Positions 8,569 through 44,250 of a stretch of 64,000 bases of DNA are shown here, in pieces. The position numbers and the translations under genes are program-made. This DNA is from Sphyrna mokarran (Eukaryota). The notes under the pieces were generated by a model. It had not been told where the DNA came from, made no database searches, and worked only from the letters and a program-made list of their open reading frames with translations. The stretch lies in the NCBI GenBank assembly GCA_024679065.1, contig JAGIQG010000017.1, positions 30,504,001 to 30,568,000 of the forward strand. Reading direction: 5' to 3'. Position 1 is the stretch's first letter. Each line of letters begins with the position of its first letter.

Positions 8569-10366
8569 TTGGTTCAGGTGACGCCATTGTGGAGACAATG
8601 ATTGGTGGTCCTGTACGTCTGGTCACTTTCTGGTTGGCGGTATGTGCCGATCTGTAAGCTGAGCTTGTAGATACCGGTGTAGATTCCATTTGTCCTCCTG
8701 GTTTCCGAAGAATCTGAGGACTACAGTGAGGGCTGTGTAACGGAGAATGAGCTGTGCTGCGTTCCTTTGTCATTAGTTCTATGGGTACAGTATAGGTGGT
8801 ATTGTAGGCAGTTTTGGGGCCTGGATTTGGAGCAGTTGGCATGGCATTCATTGCTATCCCGGACTGAGAAGTATAGCCAGGCCCTGATCGCAGATTCTGA
8901 AGCCCGATGGGATTACTGTAGCCTGTGAAGCTTGGAAAATGAGTCCCCAGTCTCCCAGGCCCAGGAGAACCATAAGTAGCAGTTTCTAGGAGATGTTGGG
9001 AAGGGGCACTAGATGGGCGGCGGTTCAGTTCAGAAAGCCTGGGTGACATTGGTTGCAAAGCCACCGGTAGCTGATGAACAGCAGAACTATCCATTGTGGA
9101 GACCACTCCTGGCTGGACTCCATAGTCATTACGCATTAGTTCACTTCTGTGGCTGAAGCTGTTTGAACGCGTCCTTGTACGAGCACTGGTGTTCTGCAGC
9201 TCCTGTCGTAATTGCAGGTCCGCTTTGCAACTCTGGACAAGCCTCAACAGTAGCCGGGCCTGACTCAGATTCGGAGCCACAGTCTTAATATCGTTTTCTT
9301 CTAACATGGCGAGGAGGTTTGTTGAATCGAAACCTTGTTGCAATAAGGCAGCAATTGTGCTTTCAGATAAACCCTCTGAACGCAACAGTGCCAGAAATTC
9401 AGACTTGCTCTCATGTCCAGGAATCCCTGCAGCGTGGTGGCCACGCGCTACCATCGCGCTGTCATAACCATCATACAGTGGCTTTGAAATCAAACCATCT
9501 CTGTGTGCGCCATAGTCAGACATCATTCTTGTTGCCATTCCTTGTCTCGGAGCATGGCTTAAAGTGCCAGGAGACATCATTCTATCCAAAGTGCTCTCGC
9601 ATCGAGATCCGGTGGCAGGATCCACAACTAAACATGTCGGGGCAACCTGTCGAGCACCTGTGGAATCCAGTGGCCGACCAGTGGCGTCACTGTACATTTG
9701 CTTATTAGTGAGAGACGGTGGCTCTGCTCCGTAACGAGGAAGAGATGTTTCAGCAGCATACCTAGCAGGAGAAGGATCACGACTACGTATTTTCTGTCCA
9801 TCGTGAATCAGCTTACCAGAAGGATCATGGTACATACGGTTTACCTCAGGTCGGGGAGGAGGTCTCCCTTGTGAGTGGTCCCATGAGATCCTTCCTCCTG
9901 ACATCCCATAATTCTGTGGTGATCTGTTAAGCATATGATCCCTATAAAACCGGGCCTCTTCAGAGGGCCTAATACCCATAGCAGGCTCCGGATAGTAATC
10001 CTGAGGAGGCACAGAGCTACGTCCAGACATTGCGGCCTGCTTCTCGTAGGAATGGGAGAATTCCGGCACAGAACTTTTCCTCACAGGTCTGCGATCATAC
10101 CGACGGGAGTAACCTTGGTCAATCCCCGAATCTGGATAAACGTAACATTCATAATTATGTTCATTTGCCTCTGCAAAGTTGTTGCCGTGCCCTCTGACGC
10201 AGTGCGGGTTGTCGCCAACAATTTCTCCACAGTAGTTCAATGAGTTTCTTCTGAGAGGCCTCTGGTACTCGTAAACACTGTCGCTGTCCCAGTTGTCTTC
10301 GTACCATCCACTAGAGTCCCAGCTCTGAGAGCGGCCAACAGTTGTATGCTTGCTAGGGACAGGCAT
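8569..10366 (-). CDS. CTBP2: RIBEYE A-domain exon of CTBP2 (synaptic ribbon scaffold isoform), 599 codons + 1 nt
   Basis: 606-aa ORF begins MPVPSKHTTVGRSQSWD and ends RRTGPPIIVSTMASPEP, matching vertebrate RIBEYE A-domain termini. In-frame TGA lies 18 nt upstream of the ATG. Donor CCA A|GTAATG at 8568 is phase 1, so the last 7 residues of the ORF track (SNAFFTF) are read-through across the donor. Confidence 0.96.
9224..9403 (-). other. CTBP2: SAM-like helical domain within the RIBEYE A domain (aa ~322-381)
   Basis: SEFLALLRSEGLSESTIAALLQQGFDSTNLLAMLEENDIKTVAPNLSQARLLLRLVQSCK has the W/F-L-xx-x-GL ... F/L-xxx-G/E-F/I-D ... L-xx-L-xxx-D-I/L pattern of SAM domains. It is the only clearly globular segment in an otherwise Ser/Pro/Tyr-rich sequence. 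Confidence 0.7.
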
Positions 10367-11200: not shown

Positions 11201-13731
11201 ATCATGCTGAGTGAAGATTCAGTGCACATCATTACTATAAGACGTAAATCCTCTCATCATCTCACAAGGGAAAATTGCCAGAACGTAATCTGGAATTTGC
11301 AGCATTTAAGAGCACAGCAGAGGTCAACACACTCCAGGGAAGAAACAAAAGGGACAGAATTCACTCTACTAGGGCACAAACGGACCCGGTGAGCAAAGCA
11401 CTGGTTAGCTAAGTTGACATGATCAATAGATTCATTTTTAAGCTGAAAAATAACCACAATGTTCACTCATTTACAAATGTGAGTTCAGCTCTCCTGTCAG
11501 TGGTGATCATTATTATATTTTGTTTTGTAACCATTTACAATACATGCTGATGCTTTTATTTTGTCATTAATGACCTACTAATGACCATCTCTGTTCCAGC
11601 CTCCCATTGCCAGGTACAACAACTCAGATCCACTCTGACCCTAAAGAAACCCTGCTTCACACCCCTCTGAACCCTCACATCTCCTCTCATGACAGTCGTC
11701 ACTAACTGACCATTCAAGAATATGCAATTTGGGTTCAAGACCCAGTGCTGAGATGTCTTCAGCACAACCCATCATGTAACGTGCAGCTGCATTGGTGCCG
11801 CACTCCTGACAAAGCAGATATGCTACAACACTGTGAGGCCTGAATAGTGCTGACAATGTTGTGTGCATGACAGCCCCTGCTGAAGTTCCATCATCTCACT
11901 CCACAGGAAGGTTAGCATCAGACACATTTAACTAAACATTAAAACTGCTGAGCAAATGGTTTCTTTGTGCCTACAAAGGGCAATTAAGAGAAACCATAAA
12001 GGCTCAGTCAAATGATCAGCTGGCAATATCAGCATTGACCCCGGTGTTTCCAGCCCGTCACTTAGCATTACAGTAAAACACCTAAACCTATTAACTTCAC
12101 TGGGTAAGATTGCTTCCCTGATTTACTGTTGATACCAACTGAGTACTATTAACTATGCTGTACTTGTTAGAAAAATGTTTAACTGTCACCCTGGAGGCCA
12201 TCAAGACGTTAAGCTGGTAAACCTCTCATTGATCACAAAGATAATCTAAGATGGGGCTGCATCACAAATAACATATGGAAGTTATTATCTGAAAGATCAT
12301 GGAAGTAATGTTTTCAAAATAAATTTTAAAAATGGTAAATTGCATGGCACTGTACCATGGGAGTACAAATTAAACCTAGTAAGTTAATGTAGATAAAGGA
12401 ATAACGTACATTTAAAAAACCTATTAATTAAGATGTTAGAGTGTTTAATTGATGCAATATTTATTTTCTTTGACAAAATGCTTTGGCTGAACAGTGAGAA
12501 AATATCAGGATCAATATATTGTAGAGAGTGGAAGACAAAAGGACAATATGAAGAAAAAGGATTGTTCCAAGTACCTCAAGAAGAATTACAGAGTAATGTG
12601 AGACGAGCCCAATCCTACTGACAATAGAAACTATCATATATGGTCAAGAAAGTATCAAAATGTGGACAATTATGCAGGGTTTAAATTACCATTAATTGTT
12701 AATTTGAATAATATACTTACAGCTTTGCTGAATTAAAATGTCTCTTTCCATTTCAGCTAGACCGCCAGTTCAATAGCCAGAAACTAATGGAACAGTCAGG
12801 ATTGCTAGCATTTGATCCAGAGTATCTGACTGTCTAGTTCTTTTTTCCTGGACTATTGCCACTGATGGAAATTTCTATGATTCTCTGTTGTGGAAATTAA
12901 ACCCTGCTTACGTACAGTGGCCTACAGTTTGACAGCTGCACGCCCAAATAGCAAATCTAAATGAATCAATGAACACAAACTGAGGAAAATGTAGATGTTT
13001 CCTGCAGGATGTAACAATAAGGAAAACAGAGCCACAACTGGCACAGACCAAGATAGACATGCTGACAAAAAGTATTACTTTAAAAGGAATTACCAACAGA
13101 AGTTCAAACATTGGCCAGCAGTTATGATGTTCTATTGTAAGCGGTTAAAGAGTCCCAGAGGTAATGAACACTCAAATTCATTAACCACAGAAATGACAGA
13201 TTATATCTGCTCTCAGCCAGATCAATGAATGGGACATTTCATATCTGGAAAAAAAGGCTAACATTACGTTTGCATTCTCTCATAATGACTATACTTCTGA
13301 TTGCGATAGTTAGTCTTAATTTCCCAAAATTTTCTACATTCGCGGAACAATCTATTACACTGGAAAATAGCAAATGTATATTATACAAAGAGGGAGACAG
13401 AAAGCAGAAAACTACAGGTCAATTAGCCTAACATCTGTCATCGGGAAAATGTTAGAAGGCATTATTGCAGTACACTTGGAAAAATTCAAGACAATCAGGC
13501 AGGGTCAACATGGTTTTGTGAAAGGGAAATCACGTTTAACTAATTTATTGGAGTTCTTTGACAGATTCATATGTGAATGGACAAAGGGAAATTGGTGGAT
13601 GTAGTGTATTTAGATTTCCAGCAGCATTTGATAAGATGTCACATCGAAGATTATTGTGGACAATAAACAGCTCATGGTATGGGGGTAATATGTTGGCATG
13701 GACAGAGAATTGGCTGGCTAACAGGAAACAT

Positions 13732-24719: not shown

Positions 24720-24997
24720 CAGCAGCACAGTGGTTAGCACTGTGACCTCACAACACCAGGCATCTGGATTTGATTCCCAGCTTAGGTGACTGTCCATGTG
24801 GAGTTTGTACATTTTCCCGTATATATGTAGGTTTGCTCTGGTTTCCTTCCACAGTCTGAAAGATATACTGGTTAGATGGATTGACCATGCCGAATTCTCC
24901 CTCAGTGTACCTGAACAGGCGCCAGAGTATGGCAACTAGGGATTTTCACAGTAATTTCATTGCAGTGTTAATGGATAATTAATTAATAAACTTTACT
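24720..24997 (+). mobile_element. HE1-type SINE, tail B
   Basis: GCACAGTGGTTAGCACTG...TTTGATTCC...GGCGCCAGAGTATGGCAACTAGGGATTTTCACAGTAATTTCATTGCAGTGTTAATG. Confidence 0.88.
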
Positions 24998-33745: not shown

Positions 33746-35085
33746 GCAGTATTACAGTATTTTGTCTTTAGAGATTGTTTGGCACATTTTCTACTACTTT
33801 TATTAATACATTTCTTACAAAAAGTAACATTGCAATATACAAGTAAATCACTATTCAATTCAGTTGTTTAGTTTTTTTTAAAGTTATAAATCATGATATT
33901 GGATAATATGCCAATATATGAATTATTCAACACTCTACACTTTGTATTTCTTCATAATTTATACATGTTTTCTAGATATCATAACTAATTTGCATATCCT
34001 CACTATGTCAAATTTCAATAATTCCATAAATGTGATTTTCTAAAAATATCTTTTAAATTGTTAAAATAATGCACTACTGGAATGACTCCTAAATGCAGTG
34101 AGTACCCTTCTGTCCGCAAGTAAGGGATGGTCAATTGGCACAAAGCTCCATGATCTTAAGGTTCAGCTGCATGACAATGCTCATTATTGGAGTTACTGCA
34201 AGTTATTAGTCTTTACAGCCAATCAGTGAATTGACAACCAGAGTGAATTTTGTATAAATATTGAATGCTAGAAGGAATAACATCACAAAGAATTTAATTC
34301 TCAAACATTATACACCCACCTTCACAAATGTAAGATTTCAACAGACATTTTCAAACATAAATGTTTTCAAAACATTATGAAAAATTAGACATTTTCAAAT
34401 GCACAATTAATGCATTCATAAAAATCTGCATAATGTTTAACAATCTGCACATCCTAAACCCATTTGTAATATTTTTGCACGGTCAAAGCAATCATTAGAT
34501 TCTCTCAGTTTATTTTCCAAATGTTTGTGAAGCTAATAATGTCAGATTGTAAAATATTCAGATCTTTTTGGTCATGAATGCAACAAGGTCCTGCTGCCCA
34601 CTTTGCTGCCAAACTGCAAATCATGAAAATGAATGAAAATTTACATGGACTGCAGTATTTCAAAGCTTTAGATACCATAGAAAAACTAGTCAACCAAAAG
34701 TACAAAGTTATCACCACCTCCACACTCTGCAGCGTTTCCCTTAAACAGTAGAAAACTACAGATACTGATAACCTCAGAATAACCATATTCTAAAGGGAGC
34801 AATTTCACAATTTAAAAACCGTGGCTTGTTATGCCATTTCTTTTGGAAAGCAGACAACTTAATATTGAGATTTCTACTAATTGGAGGAGAGCTGTTTTTA
34901 AATGGCAGCTTCAGATGTTTTGGATCAGATGTACATTTTTTATTAAATTCGTATTTTATTTTGAAAACCAACATAGTGTCAGATGTATGCGTGGTACACA
35001 GTAACCGTGAGCTCCTCTCATTTCACAAAAAGGGATATTGTGTTCTTGCCTCTGACCTTCCTCAGTCTGAAATGTGAGTACATAC

Positions 35086-35163
35086 CTCTCCTTGCTGCTG
35101 CTTTGCCTGCCAGACTGCCGCGTTCCTCTGTAGGCCGCTGTTGGTTTCCCCACCAAGCCCCCG
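35086..35163 (-). CDS. CTBP2: Candidate 78-nt in-frame cassette exon of CTBP2 (AGAWWGNQQRPTEERGSLAGKAAARR)
   Basis: Acceptor tttatgttcttgttattttttaaAG|CGG and donor GAG|GTATGT. Length is a multiple of 3 and it is open in phase 1. It is a GC/CpG-rich island in non-repetitive AT-rich intron. No transcript evidence available. Confidence 0.45.
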
Positions 35164-35288
35164 CTTTAAAAAATAACAAGAACATAAAGGCTCCTACAGT
35201 TTGACAATAGATGCTTTTTTCAATGTAATTAAGGGCAAGGGGAAGTAGTGTTTCTTTAAAACGATTGAATTTTTAGATTGTAATACTA

Positions 35289-35378
35289 ACACACACACAC
35301 ACTAATACACACACACACTAATACACACACACACACACAAATATGGACACAGTAACACACACATACACACACACACAC
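35289..35378. repeat. Interrupted (CA)n microsatellite, read as (UG)n on the CTBP2 pre-mRNA
   Basis: Several (AC)n runs separated by TAATAC. Confidence 0.95.
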
Positions 35379-35629
35379 TTATGTAGTATTCTTGCATGCA
35401 GCAGTTGTAACTTCTCTAAAGCACCAACACTCTCTTAAGTGATCTTCACTGCAGTACATTCAGGCAGGCACTCAGTTTGGCTCAAGAGAATATCACATAA
35501 CAAGAATGTGAAAGCACATTATGGCAATTAAAATTCAAGTAACAAAGCATGTTTATTCAAATGATGAGCTTTTAAACAAATCATGTTTGAACATTTTACT
35601 TTTCTGTCACAATTGTTAAAAGTGGTTAT

Positions 35630-36245
35630 TAAAAGCAGGTTAACCATGCCGTTAAAAAGTACAAACAAAGCACTGGGGTTCATTTCATTAGAGCAGTATT
35701 CAAGCACAGAGAAGCTATATTAAACTTACACAGAATCTCAGTTAAACCAAAAAGTGTGTGGTGCACAAGCGAGTATAGAAACACTGGAGAAAGGTTATAT
35801 CAGAACTGAGAGGGCACAATTATCAATGAAGACTGAATAAGCCAGGTTCTTTCTGCTGGGAAAAAGACTGAGAGGTAGCCTGATAGCAATCTTTACAACT
35901 TCTGAATGGATTGAATCATGCAGATATAGAGAAGATGCTTCCACTTAAGAGGGGGCCCAAAACTAAGATAATCTATAAATATAATAAACTTAATAAGGAA
36001 TTTGAAAGAACTCTATTCACTCAGAGTGGTCAAAATGTGAAACTTGCTACCAATTGGAGTGGCTGAGTTTAATAGCATTGATGCATTTGGTGGGAAACTA
36101 GATATGTGCAAGTACGAAAGGAACAGAAGGATATGTTGACAGGGTGAGAAGTAAATAGATTGGAAAGAGACTTGGGTGAGGTATAAACACTGACATAAAG
36201 TGATTGGGCTACATAGACTGTTTCTTTCTGTGCTGCAAATTCTAA
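35630..36245 (+). mobile_element. Old CR1 3' fragment
   Basis: GAAAAAGACTGAGAGGTAGCCTGATAG...TTCACTCAGAGTGGTCAAAATGTGAAAC...GTATAAACACTGACATA. Confidence 0.7.
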
Positions 36246-37484
36246 GCATCATTATAGAAAGAGGATGTACAATGCCTGATTAGCTGAAGAAAACCCTTAC
36301 TAATAACAGTTAACTCTCCGTGCAAATCTATGTGAGGAATGCCAATTGACACTGTGCAGGCATGCACGAGTTTGCAATCAGAACCAAGTGTCTCAGGGGC
36401 CTAATGGAAAAGCATTATATTTGAGATAGGCTGGGCTGAACATTACGTGGAGGTGACAAAGAGTTTAAAGGCAAGCCCACCTCTTCTTTGTTGGGCCAAG
36501 CTCACTTTACAGCTATTAGGCCATTCAGTGGCTTAAAGAGAGAACATTCTGCAAAGCAGCTGGGAGCAAATCCCTGTCTCCAAGAAGTGCTGGCCAGTAA
36601 CCGGCAGCTCTCAAACCCCAACAGTGCCACCAGAAGCACTGGCCACAGTTGGGATTGCAGTTAGTCCCCCATCAATGACCGTCAATGAGGCCAGAAGATA
36701 AGTTGGCATCTTTGGCTGGGAACAGTCATACAGATCCCAGTGACCTAGGAGGCGGAGGCGGGGGGGGGGGAGGCAGGCACAGCAGGGATTGGAGGTTCTA
36801 CCCAATGAGTCTGAAAACCATTAATAAGCCTTAAAGATCTCAATGGGCCCAATAGTGGGTAGTCCCCATCCCCACCCCACCAAAGCTCATAAAATGCCGC
36901 TGAGGTGGGTAGAGAACAGGCAGGGCACTGCTGCCATAGTCTTCCCCCTTCCAATATCCCTCCAGTCAGTCCACTCGGGAGGGGGTGGGGGGTAGCAGCT
37001 AAAATGGCAACAGATCTTTTATGAAACAGTAAATGACCAGTAGACACTTCCTCTTTTCAGAGATCAAGCTCACCGACAAGCCTCACCTTAATTTCTTCTC
37101 ACCGCATCTGCCTGTCTCTTGAACTTTTTTAAACTGGTGGTTTCAGTGCCTCCTCTGCTATACAACTCCACAGGATAAAAGAGGATCTGATTAAGTTTCC
37201 CGCTTGCTTCTAACCTCCTAATATTTAATTTATGTATCCTTCACCACACTGAACAATTTGCTTCAATCAATTTTGGCAACTCCCTCCTGAGAATTGATGG
37301 AAAAGGAATACATGATTCCCCTTAGGACACCACCCCCCTGCCAAAGTGCTTTATAGTCAAGGGAAACTTTTGAAGTGCAGTCACTTATGTAAATAAATAC
37401 ATAGCCCACCCACAGCTTTATAAAAATATATATTTTTTGTTTTTTCTTTAGCTAAGCCTGTTGCTGCAAAGTGACTGTCCAAGA

Positions 37485-37692
37485 TCATAGAGTTACAGTG
37501 CAGGAGGAGGCTATTCGGTCCATCTAGTTTACTCTGACTCTCCAAAACAACATCTTATCTAGGCACCCTCCCCCAAGCCCCCACCATAATCCTGTGCATT
37601 TACTGTGGCTAATCCACCCAACATACATATCTCGGGACACTAAGGGGGTATTTAGCATGGCCAATCCACCTAATTTACCTACCTTTGGACTT
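37485..37692 (-). mobile_element. 5'-truncated HE1-type SINE (tail A)
   Basis: TTTAGCATGGCCAATCCACCTAA...CTTTGGACT, plus tail ACAGTGCAGGAGGAGGCTATTCGG. Confidence 0.8.
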
Positions 37693-38217
37693 GAAGATGG
37701 TGATGCATATCTGAACTCAGGGACTAGGTGTGGACTCTATTAATGAATTGGAACATCACTTACAACAACACGAGTTTGAACAGTGTTGAAAACGCTCCCA
37801 GTCTGTTTACTGCCCTAGTCAAAAACAGTAAAAGCCTAGCTGTGAGTTTCAGGTTACAACAAGATAATAAAGAAGACTGCAATTACGTAGTTCCTTTTAA
37901 GACCTCACAACACCCAAGGTGCTTTACAACCACCTAATTACTTCCGAAATGTTGCTACTACAGTGGTATAGCTTTTCGCTGTGTCCCGTTCTCTCCTAAT
38001 AAATTCTGGGGCAGCCACAGAAACATCAAGCAGCCTCTTTTATCTCATTCCAAATGGCTGTCCTTCAGGTCCAAATCGAGGAACATTATTATTTCACTGC
38101 AGTAGGTATATCACAGCCAATTCCAATGCTATTGTCACTCAGTATCTGGATGTTCAGGGTTCAATTCCAGGGCTTTCTAGTTGCTATGGCTGAGATAAAT
38201 CACTGCACCAGCTCCGC

Positions 38218-38590
38218 AACATTTTTAAATTCTCACCTTTGCTTTCAAATCCTGTCCCTCCCCATGCCTGTAACCTTCTCCAGCCCAACTTGAAATGTTC
38301 CACCATTGGCAGTCATGTATTTTGCTGCTTAGGCCCTCAGTTCTAGAATTTCCACCTTAAGAACCTAAGAACTAGGAGCAAGAGTAGACCATCTGGCCTC
38401 TTGAACTTGCTCCACCATTCAGTAAATCTCCTCTTTTTCTTCCTTTAAGAATCTCCTTTGGAACTACTCTCTTTGATCAAGCTTTTAGACGCCAATCCCC
38501 ATATCTCCTCATGTAGCCTGACATCAAATTCAGTGTGAAAATATTCCTGTGAACTGCTTTGGGACGAAGCACTGGTATTATAGAAACTAT
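38218..38590 (+). mobile_element. L2-type LINE 3' end, with a small nested CR1 tail (~38360-38425, minus)
   Basis: TTTTAAATTCTCACCTTTGCTTTCAAATCC...CTACTCTCTTTGATCAAGCTTTT...CTGTGAACTGCTTTGGGACG. Confidence 0.6.
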
Positions 38591-39582
38591 TAGCATAGTC
38601 AATCAATCCAACACTGTGTACATACTGAAGCAAATCAGCTGGGATACGGGACACAGCAAAGCAGCAATTACAGTTTTGAAATAACTGTACCAAAAAATAA
38701 TAAAACAACTGTAACATTCATTATAAAGTGAACATTAGGGACTGCAGCCACCTGACTGCCTATCCAGATGGTAAAGTATAATAAAAAATATACTGCTTGA
38801 TGATTAATTGTCTCCAGCCTCTTTTCACCAATTGCCAACAGCAGTTTAAGGACACTCATGATCAGTATACTTTACAATGAAAAAGCAACACAGAATATTA
38901 AAATAAATCTTAAATGGTATATTTCTTAAACATCTCAAACTGTTCTCGAAACAATGAATCCAGATACTATAGAGTGAAATTGTTGGGAGAATTAGTCTAT
39001 CACTGGTGGCACAGACCTAAATTAATATACGTAGTTAAAATGGTGCAATTGCTTTAAATACCCAGTTAATACATGTACCTCAATCACATTAATTCAGAGC
39101 TATCACATTGATGGCCTTCCTAATTCTGGCTAATTACCCTTCCCCAATGATTTCATGAGCGACAAATGTGCAAAGAAAGAAAGAAAGAAAATCAGAGGAA
39201 AAGAACAAAAATTAAATGCAATAATAACTTTTTGAAACTGAGTTTCAAAGAGATAGCAACTAAAAGGCCTCTGTAATTAGTGGGATTCTGGCAGAGATCA
39301 AGGATTGGGTTTCTGCTGTGAAACAGTTCCTGGTGTCTATGCATCTGAGGTCAGTTCAGTTACTTCCTGGACAGGTGCAACTTAATTGGGGCAAATGATT
39401 GCTTTAGCTTTGGACACCGACCTCAGCGGCAGATGTGCATCGCTCAAGAAATTTTCACCCCTAACCTTCAACAAAAATATAAGCACAGTTGGTAACAGAG
39501 CGCAACAAATTTAAAATACAACCACAAGGTGCAATAAAGTCATTTTCTCAAAGCAAGTAAGGTGCAGTCAACATTGAAGAAA

Positions 39583-39915
39583 TACTTGCATTTATATAGC
39601 TCCTTTTCATACTTCTGAAATCTCCCCAGAGATAATGAATTACTTTGAAATGTAGAAGCCAAATACAGCTAAGTGTGGAAACAGGAGCAAGAGGAGTGAT
39701 CAATATGCCAGGACACGGAATCTTTTAGCTGAAACCTGGACGAAAGGAGCAGGCAGATGGAATATATCATCTTGTCTGAAAGACATCATACCTCCAGAGA
39801 TGCAACACCCTCTTCCTACTGCATCAAAATATCTGCTTAAATTACACACTCAAGTTCTCGGGTGGAGTTTGAACCCATAACCTCCTGACTCAGAGGCGAG
39901 ATCTAACATCTGATA
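39583..39915 (-). mobile_element. Deu-type (SacSINE1-like) tRNA-derived SINE
   Basis: Reverse complement has head CTCGCCTCTGAGTCAGGAGGTTATGGGTTCAAACTCCACCCGAGAACTTGAG, a Deu-like core (GGAGGT...TCTTTCAGACAAGAT) and tail GCTATATAAATGCAAGT. Weaker copies at ~37340, ~37870 and ~43560. Confidence 0.7.
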
Positions 39916-40721
39916 GCAGTTGATTTTGACATTACCCACCCAGAAGGAAACAGAGATAAAAATCAGGGAGAGCAGAACATTAAGGGTGGGGGGTACTCAA
40001 CGGTTTCGGTGCTCCTTATGTTATGGGGTTGCACTGGGGGAGTGCACGGGCAGATGGTGGATCAGGCCCCAGTTTTATTCTGTGTGCTTTGCCATTGAAA
40101 ACATGCCCGGCAGGAAGTAACCCACCGACATTCTCCATCATTACCACTATCTCCTATTTTAGTCTGTTTCAGCACAGATAGCAGACACATGCAGCAACCT
40201 AACTGACATCCTCAGGCCCAGCTGGCTGCTTAACTTTGACGTAAACAGAGAGGCTGACGGGCCTTTCACATCAAGAACAGGAATAGCATCCAGGTCCAGA
40301 TTAGGTCTAACCAGGGAAGATTTGCATTGTCCTTGTGTTCCTCAGAGCCCGACAAAGAAAAGTGAAAGCCCGAGGCCCCAGCCTCCCCTGTCTCAAGGTC
40401 TCCAGAAATTCCATCCCAGCAGCGTTCATTGTTGCCAGTTGTAAGCCACCTCCCATCAGAAATCCTTCTCCTGCCAGCTAACTGGCCATTTGGACTAGCA
40501 GCCTGCACATGAGACTTGGGAGTTAAAACAGCTGGACTGGATGCTGCTGAGATCTGTGGGGCACTTGCCTCTTCTTCCATCTCACCTACCCGCCTCCAAC
40601 TGTTTAACTTCATTTCCCTGTTAAAATCAGGGCTTTAATATATTTTTGCATGAATTTCTCAATTTTACATTTTAACAACAATGCTTCTTGTGTACCTTGA
40701 ACTGTTTGCCTCTTCCTTACA

Positions 40722-40875
40722 GTAAGAAGTCTTACAACACTAGGTTCAAGACCAGCAGGCTAATTTGGTATTTTGAGCTTTCGGAGTGCTGATCCTTCAT
40801 CAGGTGAGTCTCTAACTTGGAGTTGTGAGACTCCTGATTGTGCCCACCCCTGTCTAAGCAAGAGTCTCCACATCA
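40722..40875. mobile_element. Penelope-like terminal repeat with internal inverted arms
   Basis: GTAAGAAGTCTTACAACACTAGGTT...AACTTGGAGTTGTGAGACTCCTGA are inverted arms around GAGCTTTCGGAGTGCTGATCCTTCATCAGGTGAG. A related end occurs at ~17262-17305. Confidence 0.65.
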
Positions 40876-43800
40876 AGTCTTTCCTATAGGACTGCTGAAT
40901 CACTTGGCCAACACAAAGAAATGAGAGAAGGTGATCTATTACTGGACCCTACCTGACAGAAGGTAAGTGCCTCAAAAGCACTGTGGGTGTATCACCCTTT
41001 GTATGAGGAAGCACACTGATACCATGAAACTGAAAACTCAATGCAAAATTGCAGAGCAAGAGGGGTGAGGTGATTTGATACAACTTCATTACATGTGTAT
41101 TTAAATTGTAATGTAGCAAGCTAATCTTCAATCAGATTTGACTTCATTACCAGCTATCTAAATGGTCAGAGGTGCTGCAGGTACCTCTGCCCCAGGTTCA
41201 AGCTGCACAACTTGCTGTAATGTGGTTATGTGAACTGGTTCCCCTTTAAGAGGAAATGACAAATTAAAGCATGCAGCTGGAAATAATCTCCAGTCGTAAT
41301 CAAATCCACAAGCGTGGAATTTTTACTGCCATTCCTGTTCCTTCATTCCAGTTATTCACAAATCTGTAGCTATCAGATCTGATGAAAAACATCTGACAGA
41401 AAGGCAAATTTCAAAAAGCCTAGTGTCTGCTTATTTGTTCTCTTTTAAGTTGGCTTCAAAGCCACATTTATAAAACAACAAAGCACGATTACCCTCAAAT
41501 GTAGATGAAACTTACTTTAACATATCATGGGCAAGAGGGACTCTTAAGCTGCTTTAAATATTTTTAATACAAAAGCAAAGAACAAATGAAAGACATGCCA
41601 TGGGAACGCTGCCTTTCTTTCACATCTTGCCACACAGCAGCATTGTTTTCCCCCACAACAATCACTGGGAAGGAAGGGCCTTTGCCAAACTACAAATGAG
41701 TTATGGCTGTAATGTGTATAATACGATTAAATAGAACATGTTTAGCAGTTTGTCTGGGAATTACATTTCTGAGGTACAGTTTTGTGGGGGTAAGTTGCCT
41801 GCCAGCACCTCACCCAAATTCCCGCCTTCTGTTCTTGAACACTATCAAATGTTAATGGGTTACTTGACCAGAAGGAGAGTCATAGTCAAACCTGGTGCAC
41901 TCCTCAGTCATTGTCCATGCAGTGCACTTGCCAGCAGGGGCCACTGCATAACAATGGGAGCAGAAAGCCTGGCTGCTGATTCCTCCTATTCTTGCCCTTA
42001 AGACTTTGCAGCCAACTGTTCCAAACCTACTGCCTATCTTAACAAAGAATAGGGGAGTGAAGCTGGGACATGGTGCTTCTGTGTGATGGTGCACAAAGCC
42101 ACTGAGTAGTTCTTATTATTCTGGTCAAAAAGCTATACAGAAATGGATTCAAATGGCTAAAAGAATTTAACCCAGAGGAGCAATCACAAGTTTAACCCTG
42201 GAATCAAGGGTCCTGCTAAATCAAACCAAAAAGGATGCGAAATAGCATGAATGCAAAATAGGGTTACATAAATCATGATTGATTAATGCCAAAGACTTGC
42301 ATGAAGTGCATTGTAGTTGTCACATACTTAAGTAAAAGTCCAGGCTTGGTCATTAACTGCCCACTGGGAGATCTGTCTGTCACAATTAAACAAAGAAAGC
42401 TAATATCTACAAATGTCTTGATGGAGCAAACATTACTGGAGGCTTCTAAATTACTTCATAGAGGCATGAATACAACATGGAAGTGCTTTAGGAGACCAGA
42501 TAATGATATTTCCTTAACACTGGGGGCACATATTTCTATGTAGTCGTTGAGTGGGTGATTGTGATCTTTCATTAGTGGCTATTCAGAGGCAGAACTAATT
42601 TACACATCTATATACCTGTCTCTGGGCTATTGCCTGGCCTGATTAACTTCTACTCGTCTCAGATGCAGTCGAAATAAGGTCAGATGTGGACACGCAGAAC
42701 ACTCAGGTCAAGCTGATTCTTTTTGCCATCGTAACACAATTGAACCATCTTCCAGTGTAATAATCTGGAACGTGTAGACTCATGAAATTGGCTCAAGTTG
42801 CGGAACATAATATTGGAATAGCTGGCTGGAAGAGAGACAACTATAGATACATCTGTCCTGATTCTACAGAAATCTTACTCATTCCCATTGCTCTAATCGA
42901 CAGAAGTAGAATATCTACTGTAGGTAGAGTTTAAGGATACCCCGTTATAACCAAATAATGTGCAAAGCACACGAAGAATTTCATAGACTGTTTTATGCAG
43001 CTAAAAATACTGTTCACTGAAATTGGAAAATTTACTTTTATTCAATGTGAATAAAGATGTCAAAGTTTTCACTGGCTGGCACTTACTAACTCAATCCACA
43101 ATGGATGGTCATGTTAATATTGTATCTATTACCAGAAATGCCCAGCTTTACCCTTTGCCTGTTCCTCTCCATCAACTCTTGGGGTGTGTCGATTACTATT
43201 ATTGAGCCAACAAAAGGGATAAACATTTTCTCAACTTCAATAGGGATGTGAAACAAGCTAGATCAGGTCAGCTGTCCCATTATATGCCCCTTCACCATTT
43301 TACTCTCCATCTTATTTGGAAAGGAAAGTCAGCGGTCTGTATATTGGGTGGTCTATTTTACTCATCTAATACCTCAACTTCTCTGCCCAAGCACTTCTAC
43401 ATCGCTGCTCCTAGTAAATTATACTGTGGCTGTAGACATTCCACAGTATGGGGTTTGGAAAGGTCCATGCAAACCAGAAACATCCTGTAGAAGTTGAGGC
43501 AACTGCATTATGTTAATAGGGCATTGTTATCCCCGCATTTAAAGTGCAGCACTAAAAGAACTTGCATTATCTGGCACTTTTTAGATGCTCAGAATGTCCC
43601 AAAGGAATGAATAGCCAAATTACTTTGCACTGTAATACGTGTTGCTGTGCACACAGCAGCCAATTTTCAAGACGCAAGTTAACAAACAATGGATTAATGT
43701 GCTTTGGACATGCTGATCGAGGGAGGAATGTTGGCCAGGAAGCCTGGAAAACATTCCTGCTTTCTTCAAATAGATCTTTTACATTTGTTTGAATATACAC

Positions 43801-44081: not shown

Positions 44082-44139
44082 CTTCACAAATGCGATCCAA
44101 TCGTTGTCGTTTCACTTTGTGCTTGTCCATCAGAGACAT
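44082..44139 (-). CDS. CTBP2: CtBP2-L first coding segment (MSLMDKHKVKRQRLDRICE+G), containing the NLS-like KVKRQR
   Basis: Reverse complement reads ATG TCT CTG ATG GAC AAG CAC AAA GTG AAA CGA CAA CGA TTG GAT CGC ATT TGT GAA G|GTAAGC. This matches the CtBP2 N-terminus MALVDKHKVKRQRLDRICEG. 58 coding nt, phase-1 donor. Too short for the ORF track. Confidence 0.96.
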
Positions 44140-44250
44140 CAGCAGAGTTAATGAATGAATTCCTTTCAATATAACAAGCAAACAGGGATTGAGGTGTTCA
44201 CAATTCAGGTGAATCCACAGGAGTTGACGTGCATAACTCTAATCCAAATC
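44140..44250 (-). other. CTBP2: 5'UTR portion of the CtBP2-L start exon (whole exon 44082-44250, 169 nt)
   Basis: Strong acceptor cttgtgtcttcatctttctttttAG|GATTTG with the AG at 44252-44251. This implies further non-coding exon(s) upstream. Confidence 0.85.
44205..44234 (-). promoter_or_regulatory. 9-codon upstream ORF (MHVNSCGFT*) in the CtBP2-L leader
   Basis: ATG CAC GTC AAC TCC TGT GGA TTC ACC TGA, ending 65 nt before the main ATG. Confidence 0.75.

Follow-up and report, generated by a model that had tools for sequence, protein, structure and literature searches.

Sequence and position of the exon within ctbp2

The ctbp2 locus of Sphyrna mokarran raises the question of whether the CtBP2-L start exon is followed by a further coding exon ahead of the first exon shared among isoforms and, if so, what its residues would contribute to the protein. 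A preliminary description of the window (the whole 64,000-nt stretch of DNA analysed here), made from the letters alone, had proposed a hidden 78-nt exon at this point. The exon is real and is a cassette exon of ctbp2, with the start exon on its 5′ side and the first shared exon on its 3′ side. The features of the gene within the window are as follows.

44082..44250, minus strand: CtBP2-L start exon, with the ATG at 44139, the KVKRQR nuclear signal and a phase 1 donor at 44082
35273..35388, minus strand: interrupted (TG)n repeat, 110 to 225 nt upstream of the cassette acceptor; candidate splicing-factor site
35164..35190, minus strand: 3′ splice site of the cassette, a U-rich tract with AAG (35166-35164), from the sequence
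35086..35163, minus strand: in-frame ctbp2 cassette exon, 78 nt encoding 26 residues, phase 1 at both ends, from contigs and orthologous isoforms
35080..35085, minus strand: 5′ splice site of the cassette, GTATGT (donor GAG/GTATGT at 35086/35085)
12721..12751, minus strand: coding part of another alternative first exon; 10 of 11 residues match a ray isoform (P0140)
8569..10366, minus strand: RIBEYE A-domain coding exon, an alternative start downstream of the cassette

Introns of 8,918 and 94,724 nt separate the cassette from the start exon and from the first shared exon. The latter is located outside the window (L007:361-207), and its first two bases complete a glycine codon. The RIBEYE sequence in the window closely resembles that from Mustelus asterias (P0037). 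The alternative first exon at 12751-12721 is situated ∼2.4 kb upstream of the RIBEYE ATG and has a GTAAGT donor. A further alternative first exon, of 8 residues, was observed ∼53.3 kb below the window start; it is an exact match to P0122 and has near-identical counterparts among isoforms from bichir, gar, sturgeon, teleosts, and birds.

The coordinates, length, U-rich acceptor and donor given in the preliminary description were exact, and translation in the phase 1 frame set by the 44082 donor yielded the 26 stop-free codons that it had claimed. The claim of a GC- and CpG-rich island was correct for the exon itself, which has 64% GC and 4 CpG in 78 nt, but did not extend to the flanks (35 to 36% GC over 300 nt on each side); the GC richness is ordinary exon composition, without a CpG island. 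Scoring with approximate splice-site matrices ranked the donor 10th among the 1,966 GT sites in 44081-10500, while the acceptor, which has an A at −3, was mediocre (101st among 2,239 AG sites in the same interval); a branch-point-like motif at 35188 is predicted only. Seventeen acceptor/donor pairs were of about the strength of the cassette pair, which alone among them enclosed a stop-free multiple of three. Evidence from the sequence alone is, therefore, suggestive, and the exon is certain because of the junction contigs and orthologous isoforms described below.

The cassette has a single match in the 2.77-Gb genome, both by DNA and by peptide, in a search that skips common words. Related copies that would point to a transposon origin were detected by neither route, although an old element could be beyond recognition. 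SINE-like repeat families, 60 to 85% alike, are dispersed in the window in both orientations (e.g., at 24725, 51315, 53163, 57894, and 62264); none of those listed overlaps the cassette. A scan for splicing-factor motifs detected short common words only, including one TGCATG at 35400 (a candidate site), and the four weak matches to Rfam were all far under the gathering scores.

Transcript evidence for inclusion and skipping

The run search identified 20 public runs, none recorded as RNA, 14 guessed to be RNA and six (X15 to X20) DNA-like, and assembled contigs from six of the runs, representing five organisms, were examined. Runs X1, X2, X5, and X9 (four organisms, four studies) were examined on the cassette and runs X1, X2, X3, and X13 on the start exon. 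The join from start exon to cassette was detected in all six (as assembled contigs, from runs guessed to be RNA), and the join from cassette to shared exon, 94.7 kb away, was detected in all four runs examined on the cassette. Both of the junctions suggested by the preliminary description, 44082 to 35163 and 35086 to the shared exon, were thus present in assembled contigs.

Runs X1, X2, X5, and X9 each had one contig on 35082-35166, with 0 differences; this interval consists of the cassette plus three letters common to the end of the start exon and four common to the beginning of the shared exon. One loose end of each of these contigs matched the start exon and the other matched the shared exon. 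Contigs from X5 and X9 bridged both joins with 86 to more than 255 letters on each side, and those from X1 and X2 were 136 nt long, with 30 and 28 letters beyond the exon. The start-exon contigs of X2, X3, and X13 continued into the cassette; that of X1 stopped at the donor, where its cassette contig took over. Contigs from X3, X5, X9, and X13 were unbroken through the first join, indicating that no path other than inclusion had been assembled in them; as presence of the cassette was the basis on which the runs were chosen, the level of inclusion among them is biased.

The skipped join, from the start exon directly to the shared exon, was observed in one of four runs (X2) as a 58-nt contig with ∼30 and 28 letters per side, which falls short of the 31-letter rule but is as long as a skip bubble should be. 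Skipping is further indicated by the 10 of 24 elasmobranch start-exon proteins that are without the insert. The depths in X2 of 41.6 (included), 48.5 (skipped), and 49.7 (start exon) do not sum and are no measure of inclusion. This run had 0 differences from the window in both the cassette and the start exon, and the other runs are from relatives.

The exon, therefore, has the features of a cassette exon: AG/GT boundaries used on both sides, a skipped form, and a frame kept without a stop. Other classes were considered and rejected. Inclusion generates neither a premature stop nor a frameshift, contrary to a poison (NMD) exon, and 78 nt is too long for a neural microexon, for which the limit is up to 27 nt, or 51 nt in wider use. 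The features of CtBP2-L are kept with the insert, namely, the KVKRQR start exon and intact 2-hydroxyacid dehydrogenase domains (PF00389 and PF02826 on P0133).

Conservation and distribution of the insert

The preliminary description had suggested comparing the peptide with known CTBP2 isoforms and looking for conservation of its length and tryptophan pair. The 26-residue insert was found in predicted isoforms of 14 named elasmobranch species, and the Chiloscyllium and Hemiscyllium peptides were identical to that predicted from the window.

Sharks with the insert: Carcharodon carcharias, Scyliorhinus torazame, S. canicula, Chiloscyllium punctatum, Hemiscyllium ocellatum, Pristiophorus japonicus
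Rays with the insert: Hypanus sabinus, Hemitrygon akajei, Mobula hypostoma, M. birostris, Pristis pectinata, Amblyraja radiata, Rhinoraja longicauda, Narcine bancroftii

Among elasmobranch start-exon proteins, 14 of 24 carried the insert, and the predicted isoforms typically have 471 or 468 aa with it, beside 445 or 442 aa without it. In every ray CtBP2-L model seen, the start lies three residues downstream of that in the shark models (442/468 aa versus 445/471 aa). Each of the 14 insert-bearing proteins begins with the start exon, which fits the proposal that only the nuclear isoform is affected. The insert was 26 residues long in all 14, one of which, a skate isoform (P0160, Amblyraja radiata isoform X2), has an extra in-frame segment of 35 residues in front of it; this segment had no match in the window or in 200 kb of sequence examined. 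Both junctions and conservation, the absence of which the preliminary description had held to count against the exon, were thus observed.

Seventeen of the 26 columns show no variation; they comprise the first ten, which contain the tryptophan pair, and others scattered in the second half. A run of at least 10 invariant columns occurred in 3.7% of shuffles. Between sharks and rays, which split ∼250 to 300 million years ago, identity over 28 pairs was 100% for residues 1 to 10, 62% for residues 11 to 26, and 77% for the whole insert. Elsewhere, identity reached 100% in the start exon, 99% in the core, and 94.5% in the C-terminal tail, all far above the whole-insert value, which is no higher than that of the RIBEYE A domain (77%, 20 pairs). 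Included forms had three to four accessions versus one for the skipped form in Hypanus, Hemitrygon, Pristis, and Hemiscyllium, and one each was present in Narcine. These counts hint, by inference, that inclusion is common, and the included form may be predominant rather than rare.

Among the 363 proteins retrieved, the insert motif was restricted to the 14 elasmobranch ones. All 98 start-exon proteins from outside the elasmobranchs (ray-finned fishes, reptiles, birds, and mammals) were without it; 84 had a direct join and 14 had other inserts of 3 to 587 residues, indicating that the junction between start and shared exons tolerates insertions. Large protein clusters were listed in part (15 members each). 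The insert is likely to be elasmobranch specific on the basis of these sequences, with chimaera, coelacanth, lungfish, and amphibians being outside the sample. No match to the peptide was obtained among cluster representatives; this blank is uninformative, as isoforms sit as cluster members, and one representative search missed even plain CtBP2.

Proposed role of the insert

On balance, we consider it probable, by a small measure, that the 26 residues form a switchable piece of a predicted disordered N-terminal tail which would tune partner binding or higher-order assembly. With inclusion, the spacing between the KVKRQR signal and the first core strand grows from 20 to 46 residues, and this signal and both dehydrogenase domains are left intact. 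The invariant decapeptide with its tryptophan pair may be a short binding motif, and the variable but length-fixed residues 11 to 26 a linker. The properties likely to be tuned are nuclear retention, cofactor preference, and higher-order forms, because these are controlled by the N-terminal tail in mammals. Residues 4 to 14 of mammalian CtBP2 need a region within residues 1 to 119 for nuclear accumulation (PMC1592084), and deletion of the tail results in fewer higher-order forms and shifted binding among HDAC2, p300, and E1A (PMC2749851).

FoldIndex values for the insert were −0.07 to −0.25, indicative of disorder by charge and hydropathy, as compared to +0.18 for the core, and the best PDB match aligned from query residue 45 onward only. 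An AlphaFold2 model from a 22-row alignment had a mean pLDDT of 35.6, core included, and so was uninformative on the insert. No match to the insert was obtained in Pfam or with patterns for PXDLS, RRT, LIR, NES-like, basic NLS, and SUMO motifs; an assignment of its basic end as an RRT motif was rejected, as the R-R-T-G-x-P-P pattern is absent.

Alternative explanations

The main rival explanation, which we regard as possible but on the unlikely side, is that the exon is real but encodes a tolerated spacer, which arose once in a disordered tail in the elasmobranch ancestor. Frame and length would then have been kept so that the protein was unbroken, and the invariant start would consist of exonic splicing enhancers rather than a protein motif. 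The 30 nt that encode the invariant block adjoin a mediocre acceptor and could owe their conservation to splicing signals; the equality of the overall identity with that of the RIBEYE A domain and the unrelated inserts at this junction in models of other vertebrates also fit a spacer, as does nucleotide-level constraint of the kind suggested by 0 differences in the exon in four of four runs. This last comparison, however, is nonsignificant (zero changes in 78 nt versus four in 171 nt of the start exon; P about 0.16, one run), and the term "ultraconserved exon" was dropped for this reason. In run X13, moreover, codon 8 of the cassette, which lies inside the invariant block, differs by a single synonymous change, and neither the fixed length of 26 residues nor the scattered invariant residues of the second half are as expected of a spacer.

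The locus may instead be conserved partly for control at the RNA level, with inclusion being set by a spliced antisense RNA, a possibility raised by the following features of the plus strand.

34968..35073, plus strand: antisense RNA exon, in one run (X1), with a GTGAGT donor at 35074
42663..42691, plus strand: beginning of the next antisense exon, with a pyrimidine tract and AG at 42661-42662

A second contig of X1, 588 nt long with a depth of 5, matched 34968-35072 with 4 differences in 105 nt and continued on the plus strand from 42663. The implied GT-AG intron (35074-42662; 7,589 nt) spans the cassette, and the antisense and cassette donors are back to back in 35074-35085; the antisense orientation was deduced from the splice signals, as contigs carry no strand. 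Against control of this kind are the single contig of low depth, its presence in one of four runs, and its upstream part, which had no match in the window or in 22 loci, and we consider such control improbable. Even less credible is use of the cassette as a first exon, either noncoding, as the preliminary description had alternatively suggested, or extended to an in-frame ATG at 35185, generating a short CtBP2 without the nuclear signal. The cassette contains no ATG, an in-frame one occurs 7 codons upstream, and ctbp2 has several alternative first exons. All four of the cassette contigs, however, enter the start exon at the 5′ edge and none enters the upstream intron, in which the depth was 0 at 35175-35260, and this use is also at odds with the start-exon beginnings of all 14 insert-bearing proteins.

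A stronger version of the tail-tuning proposal is that the main nuclear CtBP2 of sharks and rays is the longer form, rather than the 445-residue protein of other vertebrates, and carries an elasmobranch-only binding motif with a tryptophan pair, spliced on and off, possibly under antisense control. We view this version as rather doubtful; if it were true, sharks and rays would have a corepressor contact that bony vertebrates lack.

Comparison with known systems

The exon is real, conserved, and already present in automatic annotations, and is undescribed in the literature found. It is, thus, not hidden, as the preliminary description had it: elasmobranch RefSeq/UniRef models XP_072413660.1 (Chiloscyllium punctatum isoform X3, 471 aa), XP_041066270.1 (Carcharodon carcharias isoform X4), and XP_032889609.1 (Amblyraja radiata isoform X3, 468 aa) include the same exon in the same position and phase. 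These models are automatic, without a description, distribution, or function attached. No published description was found in the literature searched, and the peptide string occurred in 0 papers; the alignment figures of PMC9907507, a paper on CtBP evolution, might show the insert. Section 16 of that paper covers N-terminal diversity for RIBEYE only.

The exon is of modest interest, as it is already annotated, its role is a predicted one, and disordered tails often carry cassette exons limited to one lineage. The fixed insert nevertheless constitutes a natural experiment on the distance tolerated between nuclear signal and core and on whether an additional motif can be accommodated in the tail, and studies of shark or skate CtBP2 should be based on the correct isoform.

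Inserts at the same junction, likewise in frame between start and shared exons, are present in bony-vertebrate models from macaque (P0308), a salmonid (P0326), and Arapaima (P0227), which contain parts of the RIBEYE exon, from a whale (P0250), and in P0333, P0345, and P0120. They are unlike the shark insert: 245 to 1,899 of 2,000 shuffles scored as high, versus 0 of 2,000 for a ray orthologue (7 of the 14 other inserts were tested, the remainder being 3 to 4 residues long or near-duplicates). Predicted isoforms of a ray (P0182), macaque, trout, and Arapaima (P0308, P0326, and P0227) run from a start exon to an internal point of the RIBEYE exon, retaining its 3′ part with an RRT-like motif.

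Among the closest known systems are the CtBP2-L, CtBP2-S, and RIBEYE isoforms of mammalian CTBP2, in which, according to PMC2749851, PMC1592084, and PMC9907507, the same gene varies at the same junction before the first shared exon and likewise has a start exon with KVKRQR. The mammalian isoforms in these accounts differ by the presence or absence of a unique N terminus, whereas the shark form keeps the start exon and adds a peptide behind it. The VFQ, LNGGYYTG, and VSSQS motifs of Drosophila CtBP, as described in PMC9907507, resemble the shark insert in being short, frame-preserving alternative peptides conserved within a lineage, but belong to a different gene lineage, occupy positions in the core and C-terminal tail, and are far shorter than the 26 residues of the shark insert.
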